Positions 2,976-17,207 of a stretch of 27,329 nt of DNA are shown one piece after another. A program made the translations under genes and the position numbers. How positions within the stretch are numbered: the first letter of the stretch is position 1; every line of letters starts with the position of its first letter. The notes beneath the pieces are model-generated. The model had not been told where the DNA came from. It searched no databases and saw only the letters and a list, made by a program, of their open reading frames with translations. The stretch comes from a virus (Duplodnaviria; Caudoviricetes), in IMG/VR virus record IMGVR_UViG_3300007778_000028, positions 1 to 27,329 of that record; one strand, given 5' to 3'.

Positions 2976-3800
2976 TTAACGCTTTTTCTTCTTACCGCCG
3001 GACTTTGTACCCTTGTCATTGACGTCGAGCACCTTGTTGAACGGTCGAGTATGGAAACCTTTTTTACGCATCACAGTCTTTGCAATTAGTTCTAGCAACC
3101 CTGAGCGCGGATTGAAGTTGAGAACAAACGGCAAATTCACGTCCGACGCCATATCTTTAATGACACCTTCAACATCTTTGCCCAACGTACGCAGCTTCTT
3201 ACCCCATTTAGTGAATACACCTGAAAACAGGCTGCTCAACTCATCCAAGGTAATCTGCTTTTTGTTGCGTGCATCATTGACGCGGTCAAAGAAATGACGT
3301 GTGAACTCAACATCGACGCCAACCGCAGCAAATAGCTTGTCGAGCTGTGCTTCCAGCGCAGAGATCTGCGGCATTGTGAGCGGTTCTGCAAGATTGATTT
3401 TCTCTTCAAGAGACAACGCTTCAAACGCCTCCGCAAACTCCGCAGGCACGATGTGAGAGAACGCTTCTAATCTATACTGCGCAGCGACAGGGTTCTCACC
3501 CTCGCGATCTGCAAATTCTTTCGCAGGATCGACCACCTCTACGTCGTCATCAGCGTCAGCCGTGAAGTCAATCGGTTTTGCCGTGTCCTTGTCGTTTTGA
3601 GACTTTGCACCCTTTTCATCGGCTTCACAGGTGTCAACCTTGTGTGCCATGCTCAGCACGTTGCCCAATCGCTGATACAATGCGTCGTACTCAGCTTGTG
3701 CGCGGGCGTTTTGCTCGATTGAATCACGAGTCACGCGATCAATAGTGGCAGTTACCGCCGCCGCCTCTGTTAGAGACAAGAGTTTCTGAGACAAATTCAT
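2976..3800 (-). CDS. Leader-bearing protein with C-terminal RegB/RelE-like putative ribonuclease domain
   Basis: Start moved to MNLSQKLLSLTE (ATG 3800, GAGG RBS). C-terminal VEFTRHFFDRV...ITLDELSSLF...LIAKTVMRK resembles T4 RegB (YSQHLLDR) and the FTxH..R motif of RelE-like folds. Gene certain, function tentative. Confidence 0.5.
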   Translation of the reverse strand: MNLSQKLLSLTEAAAVTATIDRVTRDSIEQNARAQAEYDALYQRLGNVLSMAHKVDTCEADEKGAKSQNDKDTAKPIDFTADADDDVEVVDPAKEFADREGENPVAAQYRLEAFSHIVPAEFAEAFEALSLEEKINLAEPLTMPQISALEAQLDKLFAAVGVDVEFTRHFFDRVNDARNKKQITLDELSSLFSGVFTKWGKKLRTLGKDVEGVIKDMASDVNLPFVLNFNPRSGLLELIAKTVMRKKGFHTRPFNKVLDVNDKGTKSGGKKKKR

Positions 3801-3815
3801 AGGGTGCGTCCTCAA

Positions 3816-4244
3816 TTACTTAGCGACTTTACGGCGGCGTGGTGCTGCTTTTTTAGTCGACTTTTTCGCAGGCTTTTCAGCTTCAACAGCTGGCGCTTCT
3901 TCAACGACAGGTGCCTCTTCAACGACAGGTGCCTCTTCAACGACAGGTGCCTCTTCAACGACAGGCGCTTCTTCAACGACAGGTGCAGCCTCTACAACTG
4001 GCTCGGCTTTCTTTTCAGCCTTTTTAGCCGCTTTAGCTTCTGGCTTAGCTGCCTTTGCCTCGTGTGCTTCGAGCGCTTTACCGTGTAAGAGCATGTCGCC
4101 AAAACGGTTGAGAATTTGCTCCCAGTTGCGCAGCAGTTTGCTGGCAGGGATATCGCGAGTTTCACCCGCAGGAATTGGGGTTGCGATCTGATCAGTCGTG
4201 ATCTTCAGCGAGACAACACCCGCCGTTGCGTTTTTGATTTTCAT
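3816..4244 (-). CDS. Hypothetical virion protein with APVVEE repeats and Lys-rich tail
   Basis: ATG at 4244 (MKIKNAT) with GGAG RBS; small N-terminal domain, then a low-complexity A/K/E/P region. Confidence 0.75.
   Translation of the reverse strand: MKIKNATAGVVSLKITTDQIATPIPAGETRDIPASKLLRNWEQILNRFGDMLLHGKALEAHEAKAAKPEAKAAKKAEKKAEPVVEAAPVVEEAPVVEEAPVVEEAPVVEEAPVVEEAPAVEAEKPAKKSTKKAAPRRRKVAK
3881..4006. repeat. Intragenic 18-bp tandem repeat, ~7 copies (unit CTTCAACGACAGGTGCCT)
   Basis: Three exact copies at 3899-3952 plus degenerate flanking copies; encodes (APVVEE)n on the minus strand. Confidence 0.95.
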
Positions 4245-4263
4245 GGAATGCTCCAAATAGTAA

Positions 4264-4683
4264 TTAGCTGTAAGCTGACGCAGGAAAAATTGAACGCCCG
4301 TGCTTTTTAGCGAGGGTTTCGAGGGTCAGAACAAGTGCAGTTGCGCCAAATGGCAGGAGATACATCGACGTGATGCCGAGGATTTTGAACACGTCGAGCA
4401 GCTGCGCGTTGGCAAACTGAATCTCATCCCGTGTCGCTTCACCTTTGAGCGCCTTCAAGTAGATTCTCAGCATTTCTTTAGATTCAGCTTTTTCCGTGCT
4501 CAGCACATGCTTCACACGGTCTAAAAAGACGCCGATTGATCGGAACTTTTTGAGAATGAGATCTTTGAGATTGGCTTCATTCAGTGGCGGCAGCGTTGCA
4601 TGCGACTCGTGAAGCTCTTGAATCGCCTGCAACACTCGAAGCGATGCCGAACGTTTAGGCTGTGACGGTTTCATCGCGATCAC
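4264..4683 (-). CDS. LETM1-like membrane-associated protein
   Basis: TRDE...QLLDVFK.LG...LLPFG (hydrophobic)...IFPASAY resembles the LETM1 TRRE...DL.R.VP...LPSTF pattern; GTGA coupling to the upstream gene. Confidence 0.5.
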   Translation of the reverse strand: MIAMKPSQPKRSASLRVLQAIQELHESHATLPPLNEANLKDLILKKFRSIGVFLDRVKHVLSTEKAESKEMLRIYLKALKGEATRDEIQFANAQLLDVFKILGITSMYLLPFGATALVLTLETLAKKHGRSIFPASAYS

Positions 4684-5870
4684 TTATCACTCAATGCAAA
4701 CTCAATCGTCGCATCAGTGCTCGTAATTTCTGAGCCTATCGTTTTTTCAACGTCGATTCGTTTGCCTACGCCCGCTTTAGCGAGTGCTTGTGCAAGCTTT
4801 TGCTGCAAAGCAGGCTTAATACTTAATAGCTTAAGCTCAGCTTTGAGCGGCAGATGACCGTTGAACTGCCCGTCGATATACACTTTGATATTCGGGTTCA
4901 TATCCACGGCTTCGTCGACCGTTTCGTGCGCGTCCACGGACTCAGCAGCCTCATTCGGGTACTCGCCTTTTTTCAAGCGCGCAACGACAACACCTCTGTC
5001 GTGAACCACAAAGTCACCGTTATCAGAAAATATGGTTGTATGATTTGGGTCTTTCTTTAGCTTGGCAGTTTTGAGTGCCAGCGCATATAAGTCGTTGTAA
5101 TACTTACGCCGCTTGGCTGAAACCTGTATAGCCTCCTCAACATCGCTTACGCTGTCTGACGAGTCAGCCTCAACGGACTCAGCTACCGTCTTAAGATAGT
5201 CAATCAGTGCAGATACTTGCTTACCGTTCAACGTCATCGACATGTCACGTGAGCCTTGCGTAATGCCAACTCGTGCCTGTCCTTTTTTCACCGCTGTCAC
5301 GTCTAAATCCATGCCGGACTTATCATCTGACAAAAAGAGCGTGCCCTTAACGACTTCAATTGAGTCGTCTTTGCGCTTCAAAAAATCAAACAGCTCATCT
5401 ACCGAATCTGTCTCAATCAATTTCGCCTCAATCATGCTGTCCCTCACTGCTTTAGCAACTTCGCGCCAGTCTGCATGGTCGCTATACCAATCTGTCAACG
5501 CGTCAACAGTCAAGCCGAGTTGCGCCGCTGCTTTCTCGGACGCCTTGATCCGATCCATACCTGACTTTTTGTATTTGGCAAAAGTCTTCATGTACTCGAC
5601 GTACAATTTCTCCATATCTTCATAGGAGACAGACTCATCAACAAAGACGACTCGACGTGAGACAGAACCTTGCTTCGGATCAAGCACGAGCATGCGCTCT
5701 TTGCCTTTTGCCGTGCTTTTGAAGTCCTTATGAACCTTACGGAACTCCGCTTTGGTAATGTGAACTGCGCCGTCGACGATTTTGTAGTTCGCCTCGGAAA
5801 CCTCACCGACTTCAGACACGTCAGGGCGATAGTGCTCTTGCACACTACCCATTAAGCGTTTAGCTGACAT
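4680..5870 (-). CDS. Leader-bearing multidomain hypothetical protein (putative internal head polyprotein)
   Basis: True start likely MSAKRLMGSVQEHYRPD (ATG 5870, AGGAG RBS); about five small domains separated by acidic linkers. Confidence 0.8.
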   Translation of the reverse strand: MSAKRLMGSVQEHYRPDVSEVGEVSEANYKIVDGAVHITKAEFRKVHKDFKSTAKGKERMLVLDPKQGSVSRRVVFVDESVSYEDMEKLYVEYMKTFAKYKKSGMDRIKASEKAAAQLGLTVDALTDWYSDHADWREVAKAVRDSMIEAKLIETDSVDELFDFLKRKDDSIEVVKGTLFLSDDKSGMDLDVTAVKKGQARVGITQGSRDMSMTLNGKQVSALIDYLKTVAESVEADSSDSVSDVEEAIQVSAKRRKYYNDLYALALKTAKLKKDPNHTTIFSDNGDFVVHDRGVVVARLKKGEYPNEAAESVDAHETVDEAVDMNPNIKVYIDGQFNGHLPLKAELKLLSIKPALQQKLAQALAKAGVGKRIDVEKTIGSEITSTDATIEFALSDK

Positions 5871-5880
5871 TGCTGAACTC

Positions 5881-6714
5881 CTACTTATCGAGATCTGTAT
5901 CGACGTCTGTTTCAACCGACTCGTAAACAGGTTCAATCGACATTTTGGTCATCGCGTCTTCACGCGAAACACCGAGTTGCTTCATAGCGTATTCCAAGGC
6001 TTTGAGCATCGACTTAGCGTGATCACGTGACACGTCAACCGTCTTTTTGCCCAGCGTCGCTGTCCAGCCAATAAACGTGCCTTTCTGCTGTTCTTCAATG
6101 TCGGCATCAACAGCTTCAGCTGTGGGTTTAACTACTTTGTGGGTTGCGACATTCACGACCGCATCTTTAATATGCTGTACTAACGCTTGCCCACGCATGC
6201 TTTTCAGCGATTTCCACGCTTTCTTGAGGTCATCTTCGCTTGTAGCTGTCAACACGTCCCAGACGAGTGGGTCACGCGACGGTGGATTACCGAGCGCAAC
6301 AGTCAGATCACGAGTAATCGCTTTGGCATCTTTACCTGACTTTTTAGCTATCCACTGAAGCATGTTGATTGTCGGACGCTCTTCGATCAACGCGTCGAAA
6401 GACTCATCAGCTGAATCATCGTCGTCACCAACATCTGCTAAACCCAGATCTTCAACCACCTCGGCAGATAACGCCTCTGCTTCAAATGCTTCGTGCGCGG
6501 GTACGACTGAGAGCAAACCGACTTTAGACTTGGGCACCTTGAGTGCCTTGATAGCGAACTGCTTAGCGCCGTAAAGGTCTTTCGCGTCCGTGCCTTTCTT
6601 GATCTCTATCTTTTTGCTGCCATACATGCCAATCCAGCCTGCAAGCTTGCCGCCCTGATCAAGTGGCAGGTCAAAGTATTCGAGCACAGACTGTGCTAAA
6701 CGAGAATTGTCCAT
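5881..6714 (-). CDS. Leader-bearing multidomain hypothetical protein with duplicated ~50-aa domain
   Basis: Start MDNSRLAQSVLE (ATG 6714, GGAG RBS); GWIGMYGSKKIEI... and GWTATLGKKTVDV... are related segments. Confidence 0.8.
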   Translation of the reverse strand: MDNSRLAQSVLEYFDLPLDQGGKLAGWIGMYGSKKIEIKKGTDAKDLYGAKQFAIKALKVPKSKVGLLSVVPAHEAFEAEALSAEVVEDLGLADVGDDDDSADESFDALIEERPTINMLQWIAKKSGKDAKAITRDLTVALGNPPSRDPLVWDVLTATSEDDLKKAWKSLKSMRGQALVQHIKDAVVNVATHKVVKPTAEAVDADIEEQQKGTFIGWTATLGKKTVDVSRDHAKSMLKALEYAMKQLGVSREDAMTKMSIEPVYESVETDVDTDLDK

Positions 6715-6729
6715 TGAGTGAATCTCCAG

Positions 6730-6762
6730 AAACGACAAAACCGCCACAAGGACGGTTTCGTT
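6730..6762 (-). terminator. Putative rho-independent terminator after the HD gene
   Basis: Minus strand AAACCGTC-CTTGT-GGCGGTTT followed by TGTCGTTT. Confidence 0.55.
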
Positions 6763-6793
6763 AAAATTAGTGAGAGCGCCAGCGGCGCGAGAA

Positions 6794-7240
6794 TTAAGCG
6801 CTCAAGCGCGCAATCGCAGCTCGGTACTTCTCAACCCGAGCCAAGTCTTTATCAGAAACGCTAGCCAACCGGCTTAAGTCGCTGTTGTGGGCAAGATCCG
6901 CCAGCTTAACTTCGACAGCCAAAGGGTTGGCTTCAACACGCGCCAAGTAATCATCGTAGTGCTCACCATCGACTTTTGAGAGCGCAACAACCGCCGCAAC
7001 AACCGCCTCAACGTCTGCCGCACCCGCACCACCATCAAGCAGTGCCGCACGCAGATCAGCTTCGACCATTGCAGTGTCCTCAAGGACGTCGTGAAGGAAC
7101 GCAGCCGCTTTAGCCAGCGGGCTAGACACCCCAGCCGCAACTGCACTGAGGTGACCCGCGAAGTAATCAACACCAGCCTTATCGACGTCGCCAGCGTGGG
7201 CAACTCGGGCTAGGTTTTTCGCAATCACATCAATCATCAT
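6794..7240 (-). CDS. HD-domain hydrolase, small alarmone ((p)ppGpp) hydrolase-like
   Basis: AH.G..DKAG..Y..H, AFLHDVLEDT and VKLADLAHN match the SpoT/Mesh1-type hydrolase motifs. Confidence 0.8.
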   Translation of the reverse strand: MMIDVIAKNLARVAHAGDVDKAGVDYFAGHLSAVAAGVSSPLAKAAAFLHDVLEDTAMVEADLRAALLDGGAGAADVEAVVAAVVALSKVDGEHYDDYLARVEANPLAVEVKLADLAHNSDLSRLASVSDKDLARVEKYRAAIARLSA

Positions 7241-7261
7241 ATCTCCTCACTCAACATGATT

Positions 7262-7301
7262 ATTATATCAAAATGAGTGAGCATTGCAAGTCAATACGCT
7301 G
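7262..7301 (-). promoter_or_regulatory. Sigma70-type (early) promoter for the HD gene
   Basis: CAGCGTA-TTGACTTGCAA...TGaTATAAT. Extended -10 at 7262-7267; TTGCAA lies 16 bp and TTGACT 21 bp upstream. Confidence 0.7.
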
Positions 7302-7311
7302 ATAGTTTTAA

Positions 7312-8061
7312 CTACTTAGACTTGTATGAACTAAGTGCCGTATCCAACTGCGCCAGCTTTTGAGCTTCAGGTTTTGTAGAGACGCGAAGTGTAAAGGAGT
7401 AGTAAAACACAACTTTACCTGCCAGACCTTCCATAAACACGTAAGGCTCTTTGTCGAATTTTTTGATATTGATCAACTTTCCTGCATCGTCAAAAAAGCT
7501 GTCTGCAATCGCTTTCATTCTACGTTCGATATTCGAAATATCGCTAGTCGTCAATGGCGGAGCAGATGTTGTAGAAACAACGGTTACAGTTAGGCTTTTA
7601 TCAGTTAGCTTAGTCTTAACACTACCGCCTGTTGGAACGTGTCGAACTACGTTCTTAAAATCGAGAGTTGCTTCGTCAACCTGAGTTTCTTCGACTACTT
7701 CGGCTGGAGTTCCCTCTTCGTCCGCAGACTCGCTCTTAGCTTTCTTCACGTCATCGTAAGTAGCAAGACCGTTTGAATATGCCCACTGTACTTCCGCACG
7801 TTTGCCAGATAGACCTTTGGTAGCTGCCTTGTGTAACTGCGTTAGGTCATCAACCATCTTTGGAACAGAGTCGTAGGGCTGATCCAGAGTCGCACCTGTC
7901 TTAACAACCTTAGCCTGCCAATACTGCTGTCCACGAGCATTCTTTTGGCGAACAGCTTCAAAATCAATGTCGCCTACCGTGAATGTCTTACCTTCACTAA
8001 GAGTATGTTTCGGGCGGTAGTTTTCGTCCAGACCGCCCATTAGAGTTTTTGCATCAATCAT
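7312..8061 (-). CDS. Leader-bearing two-domain hypothetical protein
   Basis: Starts MIDAKTLMGGLDENYRP; acidic linker SESADEEGTPAEVVEETQVDE between two domains. Confidence 0.8.
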   Translation of the reverse strand: MIDAKTLMGGLDENYRPKHTLSEGKTFTVGDIDFEAVRQKNARGQQYWQAKVVKTGATLDQPYDSVPKMVDDLTQLHKAATKGLSGKRAEVQWAYSNGLATYDDVKKAKSESADEEGTPAEVVEETQVDEATLDFKNVVRHVPTGGSVKTKLTDKSLTVTVVSTTSAPPLTTSDISNIERRMKAIADSFFDDAGKLINIKKFDKEPYVFMEGLAGKVVFYYSFTLRVSTKPEAQKLAQLDTALSSYKSK

Positions 8062-8105
8062 TTTTTTAAATCCTTTAAAAATTCAGGCGTAAATTGACGG
8101 CTCAA

Positions 8106-8657
8106 TTACCATGAATCTTTAAGCAATATCGGTTTGCGGTCATCACCACCTACGTAGCCTTTGCGCTTTAATCCGTCGAATAAATCCGACTCTCTTTTAG
8201 CAAGCATACGTGTGTCGTCGGGATTTTGTCGCCAATCCCGCCCGTACTGCCAAGCCTTGCCACTCTCGATCCAAGCTTTAATGTCGTTCAAGAGAGCTTT
8301 CTCTTTAAGCGTAAGGTCTGAAGGCGGGTCAATCAGCAGCTCGACGGTCAGTGTATTCACGTAAGTGTCGACGCGTGAATCAATGACTTTGAGTATGCCG
8401 TCTTTAGCAAGCTTCTTAGCGATCTTGTAATCTCGCTCACCTTTCTGTCGGCTCCCCTGACTCGAACCTTTGTAGAATTTGACGTCTATTACATCGCCTT
8501 TCTTACCAAACTGACGAATGAAGTTATCCTCGGTTTTTGTAAACTTAGCTGCCTCACTCACCTGAGTATCTTCAACGATCTCAGCTTTAGCAACGTCAGG
8601 GCGATAGTGCTCGGTAACCCCGCTCATCAAAAACGCGGCTTTAGATTGTACGGTCAT
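8106..8657 (-). CDS. Leader-bearing hypothetical protein
   Basis: Starts MTVQSKAAFLMSGVTEHYRPDVAKAEIVEDTQVSE. Confidence 0.8.
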   Translation of the reverse strand: MTVQSKAAFLMSGVTEHYRPDVAKAEIVEDTQVSEAAKFTKTEDNFIRQFGKKGDVIDVKFYKGSSQGSRQKGERDYKIAKKLAKDGILKVIDSRVDTYVNTLTVELLIDPPSDLTLKEKALLNDIKAWIESGKAWQYGRDWRQNPDDTRMLAKRESDLFDGLKRKGYVGGDDRKPILLKDSW

Positions 8658-8677
8658 TTTAAATACCTATGAGAGAC

Positions 8678-8699
8678 AGGCACCTACGGATAGGTGCCT
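8678..8699 (-). terminator. Intergenic hairpin, possible terminator
   Basis: Perfect 9-bp stem AGGCACCTA/TAGGTGCCT with a 4-nt loop; the U tract is weak. Confidence 0.45.
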
Positions 8700-8716
8700 T
8701 ACGACTAAACCTGAGA

Positions 8717-10066
8717 CTAAACGACGGTGAATTTGAATTTATCGTTGCCGACATTTTCAACTTCAATGTGGTCACTCATACCCGCGTAGGATACAACGAG
8801 CTTGCGACCTTTTTCCGGTAGCTTATTCGCTTCACCGCCGCCAAGTTGCTTGCTTAGTGCCAGCAAAACGTCTTCTGCATTTTTCTTAGAAACCGTTTTA
8901 CCATCAATGCCTAGCGACTTCAGACTGTTCTTCTCATCCATCTCAGCGACTGCATCGACTAGAGCCTCATCTGCCCACTTGAACAGCTTCACCGTGTAAT
9001 CTTTGTAGATAACTTCGTGATCAGCCCCGTCGCGACCGCCGATATAGCCAATTGACTTAACGTTTTTATCGTGGCGAATTTTGTTCCACTCAGCACCTGT
9101 AACAGTAATAACTTTAGGCGCTTTGGCTTTGGCTTCGGCAGTGTCAGTAGACTCCAACTGTTGATTCGACATGCGGTGAGAGAGGTAACCATAGACGTTT
9201 CGGTAAAAAGTTTCCGAATCAGTTGCGTTTTTAGCGTAATCTTTGATAACACTGAACGGCACCCAACCCTTATCCATCGCGTCAGCTAAATCTCTGTCGA
9301 ACTTTTTCGCGGAGGTACGCATCGAGTCTGCTGCGTCACGTAGCATAGAAAGTGTTTGTAGCTTTGCCTCGCGCTCAGCGCTGTCTGCTGTCCGGTTTAC
9401 ACTCATCGTGCGAAGAATATCAACCGACTTGCTGATCTGCTCGCCAACCCAAGTTTCTAGCTGGAACACGATATTGGTAATGTACATGAGGGAACTCAAT
9501 GTACCTTTACGCTTATCGGCTGGCGCGAATTTAGGGTAGAGCTTTGTCAGATCTGGATTTGGTTGCGTATTGTCGTTGATCTGTCTTTCAATCGCATCCA
9601 TGAAAAAGTCAAACTGTGGCATAAACGACTTCTTAAACCACTTTTCAAACTTTTCTAAGGCATCAATGTAGTTCTCAACTAACTTCGTTAGATCTTTGAT
9701 ATCTTTCATGTCGTGAGTTTCATCAAGTACAACGTCAGTCGACTCAATGATTCCTTTCGACCGAGCTTTCGCAAGCCCACGGAACCACGCTTCGTAGTTA
9801 ACCAAACCTGTTTCTGCATTAATGCCGAGAGCTGAACTCGGATCAGCCTTTTTAGCTGCGAAAAAAGTCGCCACGTCTGCAACGTAATTCATCGCGTAAA
9901 ATTGCTTTTCGAGACGCGAGCGTGCCGCTCCAATCCCGCTTAGATGGTTAGCCACACCTGCGAAGTCTTGTTTACTTGCAATCTCTGCGAGGCTTACAGG
10001 TTTAGCTTCGTCCAGATCGTCAGGACGGTAGTTCTCAACAACGCCCATCAATTTTTTAGTAGACAT
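8717..10066 (-). CDS. Leader-bearing multidomain hypothetical protein
   Basis: Starts MSTKKLMGVVENYRPDDLDE; internal linkers IIESTDVVLDE, QLESTDTAE and AEMDE. Confidence 0.8.
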   Translation of the reverse strand: MSTKKLMGVVENYRPDDLDEAKPVSLAEIASKQDFAGVANHLSGIGAARSRLEKQFYAMNYVADVATFFAAKKADPSSALGINAETGLVNYEAWFRGLAKARSKGIIESTDVVLDETHDMKDIKDLTKLVENYIDALEKFEKWFKKSFMPQFDFFMDAIERQINDNTQPNPDLTKLYPKFAPADKRKGTLSSLMYITNIVFQLETWVGEQISKSVDILRTMSVNRTADSAEREAKLQTLSMLRDAADSMRTSAKKFDRDLADAMDKGWVPFSVIKDYAKNATDSETFYRNVYGYLSHRMSNQQLESTDTAEAKAKAPKVITVTGAEWNKIRHDKNVKSIGYIGGRDGADHEVIYKDYTVKLFKWADEALVDAVAEMDEKNSLKSLGIDGKTVSKKNAEDVLLALSKQLGGGEANKLPEKGRKLVVSYAGMSDHIEVENVGNDKFKFTVV

Positions 10067-10069
10067 TTA

Positions 10070-10621
10070 TTAATTCACCTTTAGGTATTTAGGGTTCATA
10101 CGGTCAGCGCCGTAGATGTTGTCTTGATTGTCCTTCACTGCTTTGGCACACGTTTCAATGTACTTAAATAGTGCTTTCTGGATACGGTCGAGGTCGCCTG
10201 TCACTTTGCGCAGCTTAAGCCCCTTCAAACGTTCCATCGCAAGATGAGAGCCTTCAGGCGGATTCAGGTAGAGCGCAGACGACAGTGACTCAAACTCAGA
10301 ACGCGCATTGAACATTTCAGTTCGCGGATCAGTGGAGATCTTCAAATTATGATGAAACGGGTCGTTTTCTCGATAACCGCTCGGTAAATCCTGCTTATTG
10401 CCGATCAGACCCCAATGAATGCTCATAGATGCACCGAAGCGGGGGTTTTCCCATGCCTGAAAAAAACCGTTGGGGAAGTGCTTCTTGAACTTCGCCTCAA
10501 CTGCGTCCATGAACGCTTTGACTTCAGGAGAGTCCGGTGCGACACCGTCACTGCCTGCTTCAATTAAATTTGCGGGGCGATAGTGCTCGTTTACACCCAT
10601 CAATTTTCTCGTAATAGTCAT
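10070..10621 (-). CDS. Leader-bearing hypothetical protein
   Basis: Starts MTITRKLMGVNEHYRPANLIE; AGGAG RBS. Confidence 0.8.
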   Translation of the reverse strand: MTITRKLMGVNEHYRPANLIEAGSDGVAPDSPEVKAFMDAVEAKFKKHFPNGFFQAWENPRFGASMSIHWGLIGNKQDLPSGYRENDPFHHNLKISTDPRTEMFNARSEFESLSSALYLNPPEGSHLAMERLKGLKLRKVTGDLDRIQKALFKYIETCAKAVKDNQDNIYGADRMNPKYLKVN

Positions 10622-10670
10622 ACTAACTCCTGCGCCGCTCGACGCTCGTGTGAGGGCGCGGCGTATTGAT

Positions 10671-10979
10671 TTATTCGTGTGGGAGGGCGTTTATTAACGT
10701 TTTCAGTGCTGTGGCAATTGGACTCTGTGCAGTGAATGATTGCCCGTCGAGGTCGCAAAACCAGAAGTTGCCGTCTAATTTATAGACCGGCAATCGAAGA
10801 TCAGGGTAGTCATCTATCGAAACCATGATGGTCTCAGGCGTCACAACCTCGTAAGTGCCAAAAAACTCAGCATGACGAAAGCGCCCGTCGATATGCACCC
10901 AGACAGACTCCGTTATGCCCGACCCATCACCGCGATCAAACTCGTAACGGCTTACGCCCGCCTCAAAGGAACTGAACAT
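10671..10979 (-). CDS. Hypothetical protein (no leader)
   Basis: 102-aa ORF with GAGGT RBS. Confidence 0.7.
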   Translation of the reverse strand: MFSSFEAGVSRYEFDRGDGSGITESVWVHIDGRFRHAEFFGTYEVVTPETIMVSIDDYPDLRLPVYKLDGNFWFCDLDGQSFTAQSPIATALKTLINALPHE

Positions 10980-11010
10980 ACGGCACCTCGCGACAGTTGT
11001 TCGTAGACAG

Positions 11011-11034
11011 AAAAAAGCACCGTCTGGCGGTGCT
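11011..11034 (-). terminator. Rho-independent terminator
   Basis: Minus strand AGCACCG-CCAGA-CGGTGCT followed by a T run, directly at the stop codon of 11033..11419. Confidence 0.8.
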
Positions 11035-11419
11035 AGTTTTCACGGTAGAAATCGAAGACATACCCTTCATGTTCGTACAAGGCATAACCGTACTTTTTAG
11101 CCAACTTAGCCGCTATGCGGCGATAAACTGGGACTTTGATTGCCTCGTTCGCTGAGAACCGGAAGTAGTGCGGCTCGAATCGACGCAGTGCGTGATCAAT
11201 AAACTCGACAATGTGGTGTTTAATCTTGAACACATCTTTGACGTCGGTTTTTGTCCACACAGTATCCGGTGACACGTCACCCCACATCCGCGCCTCGCGA
11301 GACAGTGGGGCAACATTGTAATCTGAATTCAGCACGTCAATGTAGAACGTAAAAATGCTGCGGACTTCGTCATACGAGACAACGTATGCAACACCCTCAA
11401 CCTTAAAACGCTCAATCAT
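11033..11419 (-). CDS. Hypothetical protein (no leader), single-gene promoter-terminator cassette
   Basis: 128-aa ORF flanked by its own sigma70 promoter and terminator. Confidence 0.75.
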   Translation of the reverse strand: MIERFKVEGVAYVVSYDEVRSIFTFYIDVLNSDYNVAPLSREARMWGDVSPDTVWTKTDVKDVFKIKHHIVEFIDHALRRFEPHYFRFSANEAIKVPVYRRIAAKLAKKYGYALYEHEGYVFDFYREN

Positions 11420-11459
11420 CTAACACCCCTTGCCGTTGGAACCCCCAACTAACTCGGGT

Positions 11460-11498
11460 AGTATACTGCCTGATGCACTAAATGTCAACACGCTGTTC
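11460..11498 (-). promoter_or_regulatory. Sigma70-type (early) promoter
   Basis: GAACAGCGTG-TTGACA-17 bp-TATACT (-35 at 11483-11488, -10 at 11460-11465). Confidence 0.85.
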
Positions 11499-11513
11499 AA
11501 TTGGCGTCTGATA

Positions 11514-12548
11514 TTACTGCTCGATTTTGGCTTTTTTGTACAAGTTATCCATTGCGACGAAAAAGTCAGCGGTCTGGATTTCACCTTTGCTGAGCATATC
11601 GAGTGCAATTGCAATGCGTACTGCCATATCGACACCGAAAGTCTTCACATTACCTTTGAAGCCTTTGACGTCTTTCCAGACTTTATCCACAAACGCTTGC
11701 GCATCCGGTGACAAGTCGTACTCATTCGGATTAACCGCTTCGTCAACAAGTTCGGCACCTAACACGTCAGTCGCTTCAAACTCTTCACGCTTGCGGTTCT
11801 TCTTACCCTTTTTCGGAGCATTACCCATCGCAAACAGCTTCTTAGACATATGCTGATCGAATTTCGACAGATCCTGCTTGCTAGAGCGGTATTTGTTGTA
11901 GATATCGTGAGCCGCTGTTTTGTACGACCACAGCTTGCGCGACATGATCTGTAGCTCAACGATAATACCGTCGATATTCAGATCGACGTGATGCGAACCG
12001 AAGTAGCCGTATTTAGCATCGTCACCTTTGTCTTTCGACTCATAACCGACAATCATCGACTTATTTTTACGCAGAAAGTCTTTCATAAAACCTTCGACTT
12101 CAGCGGGATCGTCGAGCAAGATTGCACCGCGCACTAAGTCGTTGACGTTCTGAAAGCCCTTACCGCGCAACACAGCTTTATCAAACACCGAATCGAACGG
12201 CTTAATGCCGCTCAGCACTTTGTTTTTGCGATCTTTGAGTACGTCACGTGGCACCATTTTATTGAGCTTTTTATGCACAGCAAGCAAGGTTGGCTCAAAT
12301 TTCTTAAACAGTGACACGAGCATTGACTGAAGAACGGACTTATCTTCACCCTGCTTAATTGCCTTGTCGAGTGCCTGCACGTCGGCATCGGTAACCATCG
12401 CGGGGTTTGCCATTTCGTCAATCGCACCGAAATGCGCTTCAAACTGGTCAAGGGTTTCAAGCATCACGTCATCGAACGTGTGCACAGTGTCATCAGTCTC
12501 AACAACAGCTTTCACGTTGATCTGATCAAGAAGTTTCTTAGCTAGCAT
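11514..12548 (-). CDS. RelA/SpoT-like nucleotidyltransferase (small alarmone synthetase-like) with N-terminal leader
   Basis: IKPFDSVFDK, NDLVRG, GYFGSHH, VELQIMS and AHDIYNKYR correspond to RSH synthetase motifs Syn1-5, though divergent; starts MLAKKLLDQI. Confidence 0.7.
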   Translation of the reverse strand: MLAKKLLDQINVKAVVETDDTVHTFDDVMLETLDQFEAHFGAIDEMANPAMVTDADVQALDKAIKQGEDKSVLQSMLVSLFKKFEPTLLAVHKKLNKMVPRDVLKDRKNKVLSGIKPFDSVFDKAVLRGKGFQNVNDLVRGAILLDDPAEVEGFMKDFLRKNKSMIVGYESKDKGDDAKYGYFGSHHVDLNIDGIIVELQIMSRKLWSYKTAAHDIYNKYRSSKQDLSKFDQHMSKKLFAMGNAPKKGKKNRKREEFEATDVLGAELVDEAVNPNEYDLSPDAQAFVDKVWKDVKGFKGNVKTFGVDMAVRIAIALDMLSKGEIQTADFFVAMDNLYKKAKIEQ

Positions 12549-12559
12549 TTTAATAAACC

Positions 12560-13303
12560 TTATCGATTGCGTGGATTCCCAATTGCGTCACCATACGCCA
12601 GTGTCAGCGGTAGTAACTCAGCAATTGGAAGGTCAACTTTAAGACAGCGCGATTCCATATCAGGATCGACGAGAATTGATGATAAGAACCGGTGGTGACC
12701 GTCAAGAATGTAGTTATCTTTTGAAGCAATCAGAATCGACTTGTTCTTTACGTAATCGCGGAACGACTTAGTGCCAGATCGCGCCACAGACAACAATGAC
12801 TTATCGACGTAAATCTGCGCTTGGATTGGCTTAAGCTCTTTGACAGGTACATTTTCAAAGTACGTTTTCACGACATCATCACGATCTGACCCGTCGTGAA
12901 CCGGCAAGCCTTGCTCTAACCACTGCGCGGCGCGATCACCGGTTAGACCTTGCGGAAATGGGTTGCGCTTTGATGCGTGATCGGTGAATGGTGCACGCAG
13001 GTCGATTGCGCCTTGTGACATACGGCGCTGGAACTCCCGCACATCGTCAATATTAATCACAGGCATATCTTTACGCTTCGTCCAGCCTTTCTTAGCCTTC
13101 GCCTGTGCGAGCGCGAAGTTACGTGGGAAGTTCTCGACTTCCTCATCGAAACGGCGATTGTGAGCAAGGAATGCCAGCTGTCCAAACTCGTAGGCGTTTG
13201 CTAACTTAGTCTTAAGCAATTCCATCTGTCGATCTGATTTCAATACAGACGCAATATCGAGTTTTTCAAGCAACGTCAGGATTTCAGCAGCGCTGGTCGT
13301 CAT
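12560..13303 (-). CDS. ParB/sulfiredoxin-like domain protein with N-terminal leader
   Basis: VPVKELKPIQAQI...ILIASKDNYILDGHHRF; starts MTTSAAEILTLLE. Confidence 0.7.
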   Translation of the reverse strand: MTTSAAEILTLLEKLDIASVLKSDRQMELLKTKLANAYEFGQLAFLAHNRRFDEEVENFPRNFALAQAKAKKGWTKRKDMPVINIDDVREFQRRMSQGAIDLRAPFTDHASKRNPFPQGLTGDRAAQWLEQGLPVHDGSDRDDVVKTYFENVPVKELKPIQAQIYVDKSLLSVARSGTKSFRDYVKNKSILIASKDNYILDGHHRFLSSILVDPDMESRCLKVDLPIAELLPLTLAYGDAIGNPRNR

Positions 13304-13331
13304 GGGGTCACCTAAGTTAAAAATAGATTTG

Positions 13332-13760
13332 TTAAAGGAGTGAAGCGGACTTCGCTTTTTCGTAGTCAGACTGCCGCATCAGTACTGGGATACGGTTTAA
13401 ACCCGCGTGGTACATGGCATAAAACCGATGCCCGCCGTCGACAACCTTGAGCCGAGCGTTGACAAGCAGTGGCGGCAGTTTTGCAGCCGAGTTTATTAGG
13501 GTCTTTGCATAATCAATATTTACAGTTCGGTCTATCGCGCCAGCACTATGTTGATTCGCTCGCTCAAGTGTGCGGAAATCTAAAACAAGCAGCACATAAT
13601 CATCACCTCGCGAGGTGTCAACAAAACGCGCATGTACGTTATCTTTGTTTTTGCCGCTGAGGTAGTAGCTCTTAAGCCGTGCAACTGCGTACGTATTTGG
13701 AATAACCTCGACACTATGCACAGCCTCGAAAAGAGACAGCAGTCGGCGCGCGAGCGTCAT
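13332..13760 (-). CDS. ParB/sulfiredoxin-like domain protein with N-terminal leader
   Basis: LPPLLV...VVDGGHRFYA...G...IPV; starts MTLARRLLSLFE. Confidence 0.7.
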   Translation of the reverse strand: MTLARRLLSLFEAVHSVEVIPNTYAVARLKSYYLSGKNKDNVHARFVDTSRGDDYVLLVLDFRTLERANQHSAGAIDRTVNIDYAKTLINSAAKLPPLLVNARLKVVDGGHRFYAMYHAGLNRIPVLMRQSDYEKAKSASLL

Positions 13761-14089
13761 TTTGAGACCTTCCTAATTGACGTCAAAACCGCGCCCATAT
13801 CGCCAACCGCGAAACTAGGCTCTCCCCCGTCGCGGCTGTATAAAAAGAAGCCCACAAATCGTGGCTTATCTTTGATACCGAAAGAGACTTTATCGGTGTT
13901 GTACTTTTTGCTAGTTGAGCGACTTTTTACAAACACAGTCGCTTTTTGGCTTTTTGCCCACGAGTCGTCCCACGTAATTTCGTACGTGTCGCCTTTCTTC
14001 AGCGCATCAAACTCAGCGCGAGTCATTGCATACCTTTCAGCAACAACAGTTTCAGACAACTTCTCAAGAATAGTTTTAGCTAAAGACAT
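13757..14089 (-). CDS. Leader-bearing hypothetical protein
   Basis: True start likely MSLAKTILEKLSE (ATG 14089, AGGT RBS); ATGA overlap with the next gene. Confidence 0.75.
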   Translation of the reverse strand: MSLAKTILEKLSETVVAERYAMTRAEFDALKKGDTYEITWDDSWAKSQKATVFVKSRSTSKKYNTDKVSFGIKDKPRFVGFFLYSRDGGEPSFAVGDMGAVLTSIRKVSK

Positions 14090-14185
14090 TTTTATACCTG
14101 CGTGAATACTAGATAGGCATCTAACGTCGCACGGGGTGAGCACTCCAACGCACCGAGCGGTTTAGATGATTTTCCTAAAAAGAGA

Positions 14186-14261
<76 letters not shown>

Positions 14262-14268
14262 AAAGACG

Positions 14269-14838
14269 TTACAACGCGGGGATCGAGAGGAAACCAACAA
14301 GATTGGCAACCACCTCAGCATTTTCCACACGGTGTCCCCAAGGAAGTGGGGTATAAACAAGATTTTCAGATTCACAATAAGCAATGGTCGAATGCGGATT
14401 AACGACCTCGTCATTCATGCCAACGATGACGTGAATCGGAGCGGCGAGTTCAACTCGACGAATACGATCTAACGGCTCAAATGCAGCACGCATTGTGTCT
14501 GAAATAGGGATATCGGTGTTAGTTGCATAATCCTTCGCGGGTCGATCTCTAAAGATCTCCAGAAACGTTGCAGGATCAAGCACTGGATTTATCGCAAGTG
14601 TTGGCAAACCGAACACTTCAGAAAGCTTCATTGCGTAGAAGCCGCCCATCGACGTACCGACAATGACGGAGGGTTTAACAGAGTTAACAGTATCACAGAG
14701 TTCGCGCATCGAACGCTCGTAGTCATGCGGCGCATAACTTGGCGCATCAACTACAAGATCTAAATCGCGCAACGCAGCTACGGTCGACGAATTTCCACTC
14801 GACCCTAACCCATGCAAATACAACACTCGTTCACTCAT
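14269..14838 (-). CDS. YqiA/YcfP-family alpha/beta hydrolase (esterase)
   Basis: YLHGLGSS, nucleophile elbow GTSMGG, INP, DEVV and GH catalytic-triad motifs. Confidence 0.85.
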   Translation of the reverse strand: MSERVLYLHGLGSSGNSSTVAALRDLDLVVDAPSYAPHDYERSMRELCDTVNSVKPSVIVGTSMGGFYAMKLSEVFGLPTLAINPVLDPATFLEIFRDRPAKDYATNTDIPISDTMRAAFEPLDRIRRVELAAPIHVIVGMNDEVVNPHSTIAYCESENLVYTPLPWGHRVENAEVVANLVGFLSIPAL

Positions 14839-14861
14839 ACGAACTCCCCATCACACTAACC

Positions 14862-14900
14862 ATAATAACTCGCTTGGCTTCATAAGTCAATACGCTGTTC
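14862..14900 (-). promoter_or_regulatory. Sigma70-type (early) promoter for esterase + tRNA
   Basis: GAACAGCGTA-TTGACT-17 bp-TATTAT (-35 at 14885-14890, -10 at 14862-14867). Confidence 0.8.
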
Positions 14901-15471
14901 AGGTTATTGCTTTGTTAGGGGTTCCAAACATCGCCTTACGAATCATATCGCCGCCAATTTCACGGCGGTAGAAATAGTCATCAATCGGCTCAAGCGTATC
15001 ATTTTTCAAAATTTTCTTTGCATCGGAGACTTTGATTCTGTACTTCTTAAGCAGTTTAGGGACACGCTTTTCCAGCCAGCTAAGTAGGTGATGCGAAACT
15101 TCCATATACGAACGCTCGAACTCAGCGCGCATAATGTTTTCAAAATCAACCTTACCCGTTGGCGCATCACGATTCACAGCAACAGCGACGAGCTTACGTC
15201 CAGACTTATCTTTATAGATAATCACACACGTCACAACACCTTCGCGTACCGACAACTTCCAGAACGGCATTGTCTTGACTAACGCCGCTTTGCTTTCAAA
15301 GCCAGAGCCTTTTATGCCGCCCATTTCCTTGTAAGCAGCTTGCAACATATCCCACACCTGATCGACATATTTAAGTCTCGGATCTTGGTCTTTTATAAAT
15401 AAATTGACGTAACGCTCATGGCGCGAAATAGTCGGATTTAACCGCACTAAAATTGACTCAGCTAAGGTCAT
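14899..15471 (-). CDS. Leader-bearing hypothetical protein, possibly GNAT-like fold
   Basis: Starts MTLAESILVRL; VWDMLQAAY...GG followed by a beta-rich segment. The fold call is weak. Confidence 0.7.
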   Translation of the reverse strand: MTLAESILVRLNPTISRHERYVNLFIKDQDPRLKYVDQVWDMLQAAYKEMGGIKGSGFESKAALVKTMPFWKLSVREGVVTCVIIYKDKSGRKLVAVAVNRDAPTGKVDFENIMRAEFERSYMEVSHHLLSWLEKRVPKLLKKYRIKVSDAKKILKNDTLEPIDDYFYRREIGGDMIRKAMFGTPNKAIT

Positions 15472-15560
15472 AATATCGCCTTATTTTTAACAATACGGTC
15501 ATTCAAAAGCACACACAGCACAGATGCGCTTTTGAATATGGGTACACTTTTAGAGATCTA

Positions 15561-15602
15561 TAGAAAGGCGGGAAAAGAGCGAAAAATCGCTCTCTTCCTG
15601 CC
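15561..15602 (-). terminator. Terminator downstream of the major capsid gene
   Basis: Long stem GGCAGGAAGAGAGCGA/TCGCTCTTTTCCCGCC followed by TTTCT on the minus strand. Confidence 0.7.
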
Positions 15603-15624
15603 CCAAATTACGACTTGAAAAGGA

Positions 15625-17016
15625 TCAAGAAGTAACGATGCGCAGACGTGTTACGAAGGTTGGGATAACAGATTTCAGACCTGTCCAAACCGCCGCAAAA
15701 CGCTGGTTTCTAAGTGGGTTAGAGCCAGTTCCCATTGTGTTAGAAACGAACAATGGCATGTATGGCGCATGTACCAATGGCGCTTCAAAGTGGCTGTTGC
15801 CCTTGTAGCAGCACAGCATGTCATCAGACGCGATGATGTTCGCAGCACGGATAACAGGAACTCCATTAAAGAAGCCGTATAGACCTACTGCGCTGTTCAT
15901 GCCGCCTTCAGCAGCAGTGAAACCTGCCATGCCACGCAGAGTAGCAGCAGCAGACGCGCCAGCGATGATGCGGCTGATTGAGCCACGTCCAGAGTTGGCA
16001 TTAAGAAGCGCTTCTGCCTGTGCAAATGCGTCTATAAATGTCAACTTATGTTCAGCGTAAGACACGGCAGATGGTGCAGTGCGATCCCACGTAGTTACGC
16101 CAACAGCCGCAGCGTCAAGACGCTGGATAGCCGCAGTGTTAGTTACGCGAGTCAGTTCGCCGGTTAGATCCTGAGCAACTTCGTCCATTGCAAGACGACC
16201 GAAGCGCTTGCTGAAAGAGTACTCTTGCAGGATACCAACTTCAGATTTCAGTGCGAAAACTTCAGCACGGATATCAGTAGATGCCAAAGTGCCTGCGATG
16301 CCCTGAATGTCAGACTGAGCTTCAAACAGCTGCTCGTAAGTAGCCATGATAGAAGCGCCGTTAGCAACAGCGTCAACGAAAGTTACTTCAACCATACCTG
16401 TTTCGTAGTTGATAGAACCTGTAGCGCCGTTACCCAGCAGAGTGCCGTTGCCGTCATCCATTACTTTCACGCCGCCAACGGTCGCAGTGAAGCTGCGTGG
16501 ACGAACCTGCTCATTAGCAAGGTTTGCAGAGAAAGTAGTAGTAGCGCCGTCACCTGAAGCCATAACTTCAGTAACAGTCGCAGCACCGTAAGACGAGTTC
16601 CAGTCACGTACGCCATTCTGAGCGTCCATGATGATCTGACCTTGGGTGCGACCTGCTGCGTTAGAAGTAGCAACAACCTGTTTGTAGTAGACGATGCCCT
16701 GCTCTTCCTGAATTGGCTGCGTGCTTGCTACCAGCGGAAGGATTGAGTTGCCGTGTGCAGCCGCGATTACGTCCAGAGCAACGCTTGGCAGCTGACCCAG
16801 AGCACCTACAGTGCCGGTAGACTCAACGTAGTTCTGGTACTCTTCGTACTGTTCCAGCTGACGACCGAGACAGTAGATCTCAGAAGCGGAAACAGACGCG
16901 CCTGATTTAGCCAGAGCAGAGTGAGACTCAAATGCTTCGATCTGGTCACGGTATTTTTCAAAGTAGCGGTCAGCATTGTTTTCAATGATTGACTCGTTCA
17001 TTTTTTCAAATGACAT
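15625..17016 (-). CDS. Major capsid protein (T4 gp23-like, HK97 fold)
   Basis: Start MSFEKMNE (ATG 17016, AGGA RBS), 463 aa. LVASTQPI..QGIVYY, YKG.S.FEAPLVHAPYMPL are gp23-like motifs; directly follows the protease/scaffold gene. Confidence 0.9.
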   Translation of the reverse strand: MSFEKMNESIIENNADRYFEKYRDQIEAFESHSALAKSGASVSASEIYCLGRQLEQYEEYQNYVESTGTVGALGQLPSVALDVIAAAHGNSILPLVASTQPIQEEQGIVYYKQVVATSNAAGRTQGQIIMDAQNGVRDWNSSYGAATVTEVMASGDGATTTFSANLANEQVRPRSFTATVGGVKVMDDGNGTLLGNGATGSINYETGMVEVTFVDAVANGASIMATYEQLFEAQSDIQGIAGTLASTDIRAEVFALKSEVGILQEYSFSKRFGRLAMDEVAQDLTGELTRVTNTAAIQRLDAAAVGVTTWDRTAPSAVSYAEHKLTFIDAFAQAEALLNANSGRGSISRIIAGASAAATLRGMAGFTAAEGGMNSAVGLYGFFNGVPVIRAANIIASDDMLCCYKGNSHFEAPLVHAPYMPLFVSNTMGTGSNPLRNQRFAAVWTGLKSVIPTFVTRLRIVTS

Positions 17017-17048
17017 GATGTATTTCCTATTTTGCGGAGTGATAAATA

Positions 17049-17207
17049 CTGGCAAGCGCCAGCCTTCGACTAACTGGATTTACTTTAAATCGGAAGTGCC
17101 GCAGAAATTTCTATCCGGTGAGTGCACACGCGGTACACTCAAATCTCACGTACTTGATCTAGTCAACTTCAAGCACGCACGTAAAACGCTGTGCGCAACG
17201 CACACAG
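17049..17207 (-). other. Cluster of stem-loops in the ~260-bp leader of the capsid gene
   Basis: Hairpins at 17049-17062, 17119-17141, 17149-17177 and 17189-17207; the imperfect pair in three of them is G.U only on the minus strand. Confidence 0.55.

Follow-up and report, generated by a model that had tools for sequence, protein, structure and literature searches.

The DNA analyzed here, hereafter the window, is the whole 27,329-nucleotide stretch of IMG/VR virus record IMGVR_UViG_3300007778_000028 (Duplodnaviria; Caudoviricetes), a phage head module encoding a large terminase, a portal, a prohead protease, and a Gp23-like capsid protein. Three of its minus-strand genes are the subject of this study: a predicted pyrophosphokinase with a small alarmone synthetase (SAS) fold (the synthetase), a small adjacent protein (the partner), and an HD-domain hydrolase. 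The initial annotation proposed a pair, in which a leader-bearing RelA/SpoT-like synthetase is injected and its signal is then reset by the HD hydrolase, and both open reading frames (ORFs) and every motif quoted for them were located where it had placed them. The coupling of the two genes is real, but the pair was incomplete. The system has three parts, including an overlooked gene at 11033-11419 that is a closer partner of the synthetase than the HD gene, 4.3 kb off. The features of the system are as follows.

11514..12548, minus strand: synthetase, predicted SAS-fold pyrophosphokinase, 344 amino acids (aa), phrog_37685, unclassified phage family
12414..12548, minus strand: leader/propeptide, residues 1-45, acidic (pI 4.2), low model confidence, ending I43-D44-E45 at a predicted prohead-protease cut
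11820..12413, minus strand: predicted mature catalytic core, residues 46-243, basic (pI 9.4)
11517..11780, minus strand: acidic C-terminal extension, residues 257-344, common only to the closest homologue, P0002
11460..11495, minus strand: partner promoter, CAGCGTGTTGACA-17-TATACT, top sigma70 match in 4000-16000 (11/12)
11033..11419, minus strand: partner, 128 aa, leaderless, phrog_24699, DUF6934 in 4/12 members, weakly GNAT-like alpha/beta fold
11016..11034, minus strand: intrinsic terminator-like hairpin and U run, 3' of the partner gene
7262..7301, minus strand: HD promoter region, shared element CAGCGTATTGAC and extended -10 TGATATAAT
6794..7240, minus strand: Aph1-type HD hydrolase, 148 aa, no leader
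6734..6761, minus strand: hairpin 3' of the HD gene, possible terminator, -14.2 kcal, no clean U run

Fold, active site, and family of the synthetase

The synthetase matches the Pfam RelA_SpoT profile at an E value of 1.5e-4, under the curated cutoff. Its AlphaFold model has a predicted local distance difference test score (pLDDT) of 81 overall and >90 in the core, and its structural matches include RelQ, RelP, CapRel, and Tas1 with Z scores of 12 to 14. The SAS fold is present in the model (5ded, Z 14.3, root mean square deviation [rmsd] 4.0, 172 residues aligned; Tas1, Z 12.2, rmsd 3.0, 163 residues aligned), and in these model comparisons the fold scores do not separate the substrate classes.

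A profile search at an E value of ≤1e-30 retrieved 175 family clusters, which are confined to viruses. Gp23 is encoded in 15 of 17 synthetase-bearing records, the 2 without it being fragments. Among the profiles searched, none placed the synthetase in a named subfamily, and PADLOC and NCBIfam yielded no family-level match. In the available part of the Jimmy 2020 dataset, phiN3 and phiM19 are credited, among the matches listed, with the hydrolase PbcSpo[H] only, and the synthetase family is therefore unassigned there. A cellular origin was rejected, as a single-pattern scan of 185,579 GTDB species genomes gave 2 matches, both on short contigs of metagenome-assembled genomes.

Conservation of the active site was assessed in 167 family proteins with about 25 to 50% identity. 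The core residues of the window protein are K116, S120, K124, R128, D137, R140, K172, Y182, G184, S185, H187, E198, Q200, K210, H214, Y217, and R221, among which D137 is the catalytic Asp of motif Syn2 and E198 and Q200 form the ExQ of Syn4. H187, E198, and K210 are conserved in all 167 proteins, K124, D137, and Q200 in 165, K116 and R128 in 164, and R140 in 151. The initial annotation cautioned that the Syn1 arginine appeared to be replaced, and Gly114 indeed occupies the Arg position of RxK. This caveat is weaker than feared: most family members have Asp or Gly at this position, whereas the catalytic Asp, Glu, and Gln and the phosphate-binding lysines hardly vary, and the replacement is therefore a family trait rather than decay. 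A pseudogene reading was rejected on the same family-wide conservation. The invariant residues R128 and K172 might compensate for the lost arginine.

The motifs are mixed. Syn2 reads RGA in the register of the Apk enzymes, Syn3 is the SxH of RelA/SpoT homologues (RSH), and Syn4 is a unique I/V-M (IM in the window). In an alignment with two Apk2 domains, the D-x-x-R register and a C-terminal K..H..Y...R helix coincide. Exchange of Syn motifs left specificity unswitched according to PMC12226406 (here and below, published work is cited from the available sections of each source), and the product is therefore not nameable from motifs alone.

Leaders and head packaging

The cleavage predicted after AIDE in the initial annotation is supported by the family, as 30 of 33 members with an NP motif have [ILVMF]xE 1 to 4 residues upstream of NP. 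A start of the form aromatic-x-x-aromatic, which we take to be a T4-type capsid-targeting signature, occurs in 89 of the 167 family members versus 31 of 294 background ORFs, and 122 of the 167, versus 136 of 524, have [ILV]xE among their first 20 residues. The cut rule of T4 is L/I-X-E (PMC9026906), which is found ahead of the mature domain of the synthetase as I43-D44-E45, and the leader pattern of the family agrees with the T4 rules (PMC9026906, PMC3012670). T4-type targeting residues, expected at about positions 4 and 7 (PMC9026906), are absent from the window synthetase and present in the same 89 family members.

The leader of the window synthetase and of P0002 has instead the form A-x-x-L/I-L, a type of its own lineage that is common to the neighboring genes in the window. 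In a phylogenetic tree of 163 rows, including two outgroups and omitting six family proteins that lacked an anchor motif or were too short, these proteins nest among members with aromatic leaders (support, 0.79), which suggests that the leader was exchanged to suit a new phage lineage. By eye, head-region genes of two related phages, L034 and RP13, have leaders similar to those of the window, and YerA41 genes 205c, 206c, and 208c-210c have one leader ending in xE. Four of these five genes are labeled structural protein; the YerA41 paper used virion liquid chromatography-tandem mass spectrometry, and its protein list also included replication enzymes. The synthetases of one subgroup (L118-L127), several adjoined by an HD gene and none by a partner gene, may represent a non-packaged version.

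The leader and packaging reading of the initial annotation is thus supported as likely by the family leaders with [ILV]xE and by late-type promoters (see below), and the synthetase is probably packaged in the head, as judged from its sequence.

The Aph1-type HD hydrolase

The protein encoded at 6794-7240 matches phrog_990 (E value, 1e-41), and its best PDB match is Aph1 (7SMG; E value, 7.7e-17), ahead of the next match by 13 orders of magnitude. The HD metal site is present (H50-D51, E54-D55, D115, and N119). In the alignment with 7SMG, all six residues of the (p)ppApp signature described in PMC10083569 are found: D20, R101, D121, R124, K138, and Y139, equivalent to D24, R96, D116, R119, K133, and Y134 of Aph1. 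Aph1 is a tetrameric (p)ppApp hydrolase, with no ppGpp activity according to the same source. The small alarmone hydrolase (SAH)-like character proposed from the motifs and the missing leader therefore stands, refined to an Aph1 type and thereby suggestive of adenosine as the acceptor.

The partner

The partner gene lies ≤100 bp from the synthetase gene in 14 of 19 viral loci (two of them with an identical protein), in a tandem, upstream, or convergent arrangement, and 1.3 kb away in one further viral locus; it is also present in 11 of 36 metagenome loci, most of which are short. The simplest reading is that it is likely the cognate inhibitor of the synthetase. Its model (pLDDT, 89.5) gave no Foldseek match at an E value of ≤0.001, and the best structural matches, an RNase E subdomain and GNATs, reached a Z score of 7.2, which is in the noise range and carries no weight for or against an acetyltransferase role. 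Tis1 was not among the fold matches listed, from which no exclusion follows. The partner fold is a candidate new inhibitor fold; the protein is 128 aa long versus 69 and 72 aa for two IapK immunity proteins.

Genomic coupling and fusions

Of 11 near-complete synthetase genomes, 10 have the HD gene (versus 2 of 19 controls; Fisher P = 2e-5) and 9 have the partner (versus 0 of 19; P = 4e-6), both P values being uncorrected for kinship, and every one of the 11 genomes has the HD gene, the partner, or both. The controls were 19 hand-picked isolates, one of which was known in advance to bear the HD gene. IMG/VR contigs with Gp23, mostly fragments, contained the HD gene in 2 of 26 cases (apparently one phage) and were not used as a control. 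The synthetase was found in 0 of 25 records by a scan without a positive control, consistent with a separate search that matched none of those records.

In 13 of the 36 metagenome loci, HD is fused to the synthetase or lies ≤1.5 kb from it, and the gene order synthetase-partner-HD occurs in L139 and L141. Fusions of HD and synthetase were found in 10 of the 167 proteins, in both orders and with at least seven independent origins on the tree, and 4 of the 10 fused HD domains have the full (p)ppApp signature. The co-occurrence, adjacency, and repeated fusion bear out the coupling of synthetase and HD hydrolase. In one fusion, L114, an internal leader with its own GGAG and ATAAATA lies inside the HD sequence. 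HD-first fusions (L114:134-1273; P0136, P0079, P0117, and P0080) retain the leader after the HD domain, which suggests two products per gene.

Promoters and shared elements

As had been proposed, a separate sigma70-like promoter precedes the HD gene (7289-7262; TTGCAA-16-TATAAT, extended -10 TG), although sigma70-like sites occur in the region at chance level (13 observed versus 12.3 expected). Of the terminator proposed for it, the 6734-6761 hairpin stands, but the terminator scan did not call it. The 12-mer CAGCGTRTTGAC lies directly 5' of three leaderless genes (HD, 11033-11419, and 14269-14838); with ≤1 mismatch it has 6 matches versus 0.43 expected, the pattern being derived from the same three sites. 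An 8-bp inverted repeat, CTCACTCA...TGAGTGAG, at 7246-7281 brackets the HD -10 box and overlaps the ribosome site, and it is a possible operator. At 14186-14897, a gene for an alpha/beta hydrolase (UPF0227) and then a tRNA-Thr(TGT) gene are found with the same CAGCGTATTGAC promoter element as before both putative antidote genes.

Homologous loci support a split between late-type and sigma70 promoters. ATAAATA, the late-type element, precedes the synthetase in 14 of 45 loci, with no strong sigma70 site in any of the 45. Upstream of the partner, ATAAATA occurs in 1 of 23 regions and a strong sigma70 site in 11 of 23; the corresponding numbers are 2 and 5 of 21 for HD and 35 and 36 of 417 for other ORFs. 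These counts include near-duplicates and some mis-set starts.

Proposed mechanism and alternatives

We propose that the synthetase is a late, head-packed, and injected adenosine pyrophosphokinase restrained by the partner and the Aph1-type HD hydrolase, and we assign this model a probability of roughly 55%. What was observed is the SAS fold with its conserved catalytic residues, the patterns in leaders and promoters, the Aph1 signature of the hydrolase, and the coupling of the genes across genomes; the packaging, injection, activity, product, and inhibition are inferred from these. The synthetase would likely be made late, loaded into the head via its leader, and trimmed at IDE-45. After injection it would move pyrophosphate from ATP to an adenosine 3'-OH, most likely yielding (p)ppApp. 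The partner and HD genes, of sigma70 type and likely early, would restrain it, the partner probably by binding the enzyme and the hydrolase by hydrolyzing its predicted product. The host would thereby be shut down briefly, from injection until early genes are expressed, and the producing cell would be shielded late in infection. Fusion L114 may represent this timed expression within a single gene. As to the acceptor, a free adenosine nucleotide is favored at somewhat below even odds and the tRNA 3'-CCA end is doubtful; GTP/GDP is improbable, and so, equally, is another acceptor or an inactive enzyme.

Several observations weigh against this model. The window leader pattern occurs in 8 of 30 window genes versus 9 of 524 background ORFs, but it was written after the genes had been viewed, and it found just 1 ORF in RP13 and 4 of 26 in L034; subgroup L118-L127 has no evident leader. 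A shared late promoter was looked for in the window and none was identified. The Syn1 arginine is missing in 152 of 167 members (kept in 15), Syn4 is neither IR nor YH, Syn3 has the SxH form that PMC12226406 associates with guanosine, and Tas1 is not ranked above RelQ or CapRel in the fold comparison. Among the near-complete genomes, G010 lacks HD, and W02 and G015 lack the partner. Five or six signature residues are found in 4 of the 10 co-occurring HD hydrolases and zero to four in 5, with 1 unaligned. The HD gene is also widespread without the synthetase, and the dependence between the two is one-way: 248 phage records have HD versus 11 with the synthetase.

An alternative that we consider unlikely keeps the same packaging and antidotes and places the target at the tRNA 3'-CCA end, as for FaRel2 and CapRel, with a transient block of translation. 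It accords with the basic core, with a Syn3 that is SxH rather than the GxN of Apk, and with CapRel giving the longest structural alignment (210 residues, Z 13.1). Phage PbcSpo and PaSpo hydrolases also neutralize tRNA-targeting toxic SAS (toxSAS) enzymes (PMC7229694, Table 1), the phiN3 HD is classed as PbcSpo in the Jimmy 2020 dataset, and in phiM12 genes for a CCA-adding enzyme and a peptidyl-tRNA hydrolase lie within 4 kb. However, FaRel2 scores only Z 7.2-7.6, the Syn2 register and C-terminal helix are Apk2-like, and a translation block would slow production of the antidotes.

It is quite improbable that the synthetase is not injected or not catalytic, and is instead an enzyme acting inside the cell at a late stage or a basic internal protein that binds DNA, with HD an unrelated gene. 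The loss of the Syn1 arginine, the deduction of the leaders from sequence alone, and the distance of HD (19 to 58 kb or more in several genomes) would be compatible with such a role, but the near-invariant catalytic residues, the dedicated partner gene, the fusions with at least seven origins, and the late/early promoter split weigh against it. Least probable is that the injected enzyme makes (p)ppGpp and so brings about a stringent-like state, with HD directed mainly against host toxSAS defense: Syn3 SxH, the best profile and fold matches (RelQ/RelP/Rel), the Arg at the Aph1 D24 position in two co-occurring HD hydrolases, and the frequency of stand-alone HDs in lytic phages fit it, but the full (p)ppApp signature in the window HD and 4 of 10 fused HDs, the absence of ppGpp activity from Aph1, and a repeated fusion that argues for HD acting on the synthetase's product do not.

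The most far-reaching interpretation, which we regard as rather unlikely, is that the trio is a poison-antidote element acting across virion generations, that is, a Medea-like drive in lytic phages. Every head from an infected cell would carry the enzyme, and only genomes with the partner and HD would silence it after injection. If so, an unrestrained (p)ppApp maker would be left to co-infecting rivals packaged in such heads as well as to hosts in which the incoming DNA is destroyed, and the drive would account for the tight linkage, patchy spread, leader swapping between lineages, and repeated fusions.

Comparison with known systems

The closest anatomy is that of the Apk2-IapK-Aph1 trio of temperate phages (PMC10083569, PMC12226406), in which a head-linked SAS-fold enzyme (head linkage being predicted here) is likewise accompanied by a small adjacent partner and an Aph1 hydrolase, in the gene order seen in L139 and L141; the D-x-x-R register and C-terminal K..H..Y...R are shared. 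The window synthetase, however, has no MuF match and carries the predicted cleavable 45-residue leader in its place. Syn2 RYT, Syn3 GxN, and Syn4 YH of Apk2 correspond to RGA (same register), SxH, and IM in the window, where the Syn1 arginine is also lost. The family resides in large phages bearing Gp23, and each putative antidote gene has a promoter of its own and is in some cases encoded on the opposite strand. By this analogy, the window trio has the Apk2-IapK-Aph1 anatomy, apparently adapted to a large phage in which expression is timed, and its synthetase is not Apk2. The HD hydrolase resembles Aph1 in length class, HD motif, and signature but, unlike it, is distant from the synthetase in the window genome.

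The toxSAS enzymes (FaRel2, CapRel, and PhRel) have the same fold and are neutralized by phage SAHs, and FaRel-ATfaRel likewise joins a toxin to a cognate small antitoxin, here putative. In contrast, they are host or prophage defense modules without packaging leaders, and PADLOC gave no match for the window system. T4 internal proteins resemble the T4-type family members in their leader of about 10 residues, L/I-X-E cut, and late promoter, but the cargo here is a predicted nucleotide-signal enzyme with dedicated antidote genes, and the leader motif of the window is of another type, specific to its lineage. For phage polyvalent proteins, RelA/SpoT domains have been proposed as injected alarmone makers (PMC5512222), and family members P0016, P0020, and P0101 are similarly fused to other internal-protein domains. 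The polyvalent proteins are from Spirochaete and epsilonproteobacterial (pro)phages and include MuF fusions; the available sections of that source name no antidotes and no solo family in the T4 superfamily.

Neighboring genes

The synthetase lies in a run of genes with similar leaders.

15625-17055: major capsid gene
17276-19204: prohead protease gene
4680..15471, minus strand: cluster of similar-leader genes 3' of these two genes

The capsid protein is 41 to 44% identical to those of RP13, Ab1-TPeters, and IME392 and 28% identical to that of YerA41. A few genes without leaders break up the run of similar N termini 3' of the capsid gene. At its C terminus, the prohead protease is extended by a long acidic stretch with many xE sites, likely a fused scaffold. 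In five proteins encoded at 4680-5870 and 7312-10621, the leader is followed by a common N-terminal (E)(H/N)YRP motif; these proteins have no Pfam match. Immediately 5' of the synthetase, two ParB-like genes (DGHHR and DGGHR) lie at 12560-13760; P0101 has a domain of this kind fused to the synthetase, and in L003 one lies near it. The C-terminal domain of 2976-3815 resembles by eye a domain fused N-terminally to the synthetase in P0016 and P0020 (HF.DR.ND.RN), presumably a PBECR-like nuclease. In two close relatives (L033:9211-10040 and L034:9216-10040), an insertion with its own ORF, possibly an intron, interrupts the capsid gene.

Significance

Injected RelA/SpoT domains (PMC5512222) and the Apk2 trio are already in print; in the literature searched, with subscription papers mostly outside its scope, no account was found of the synthetase family, its leader-based packaging, or its partner. 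The infection role of head-associated (p)ppApp synthetases was called unexplored for MuF toxins (PMC10083569). The present family extends the logic of these toxins to large phages of the T4 superfamily, including the cultured phages phiM12 (homologue gp365) and phiN3, whose hosts are harmless, and injection, timing, and fitness are therefore open to direct testing. With its unusual active site, it is also a large addition to the SAS families, apparently overlooked by an earlier RSH census, and the trio offers one reason for the retention of Aph1-like hydrolases in some lytic phages. Many large T4-like phages encode an unclassified RelA/SpoT-fold enzyme, probably carried in the capsid and injected to form an adenosine nucleotide that arrests growth, alongside a putative blocking partner and a hydrolase that is predicted to remove the nucleotide.

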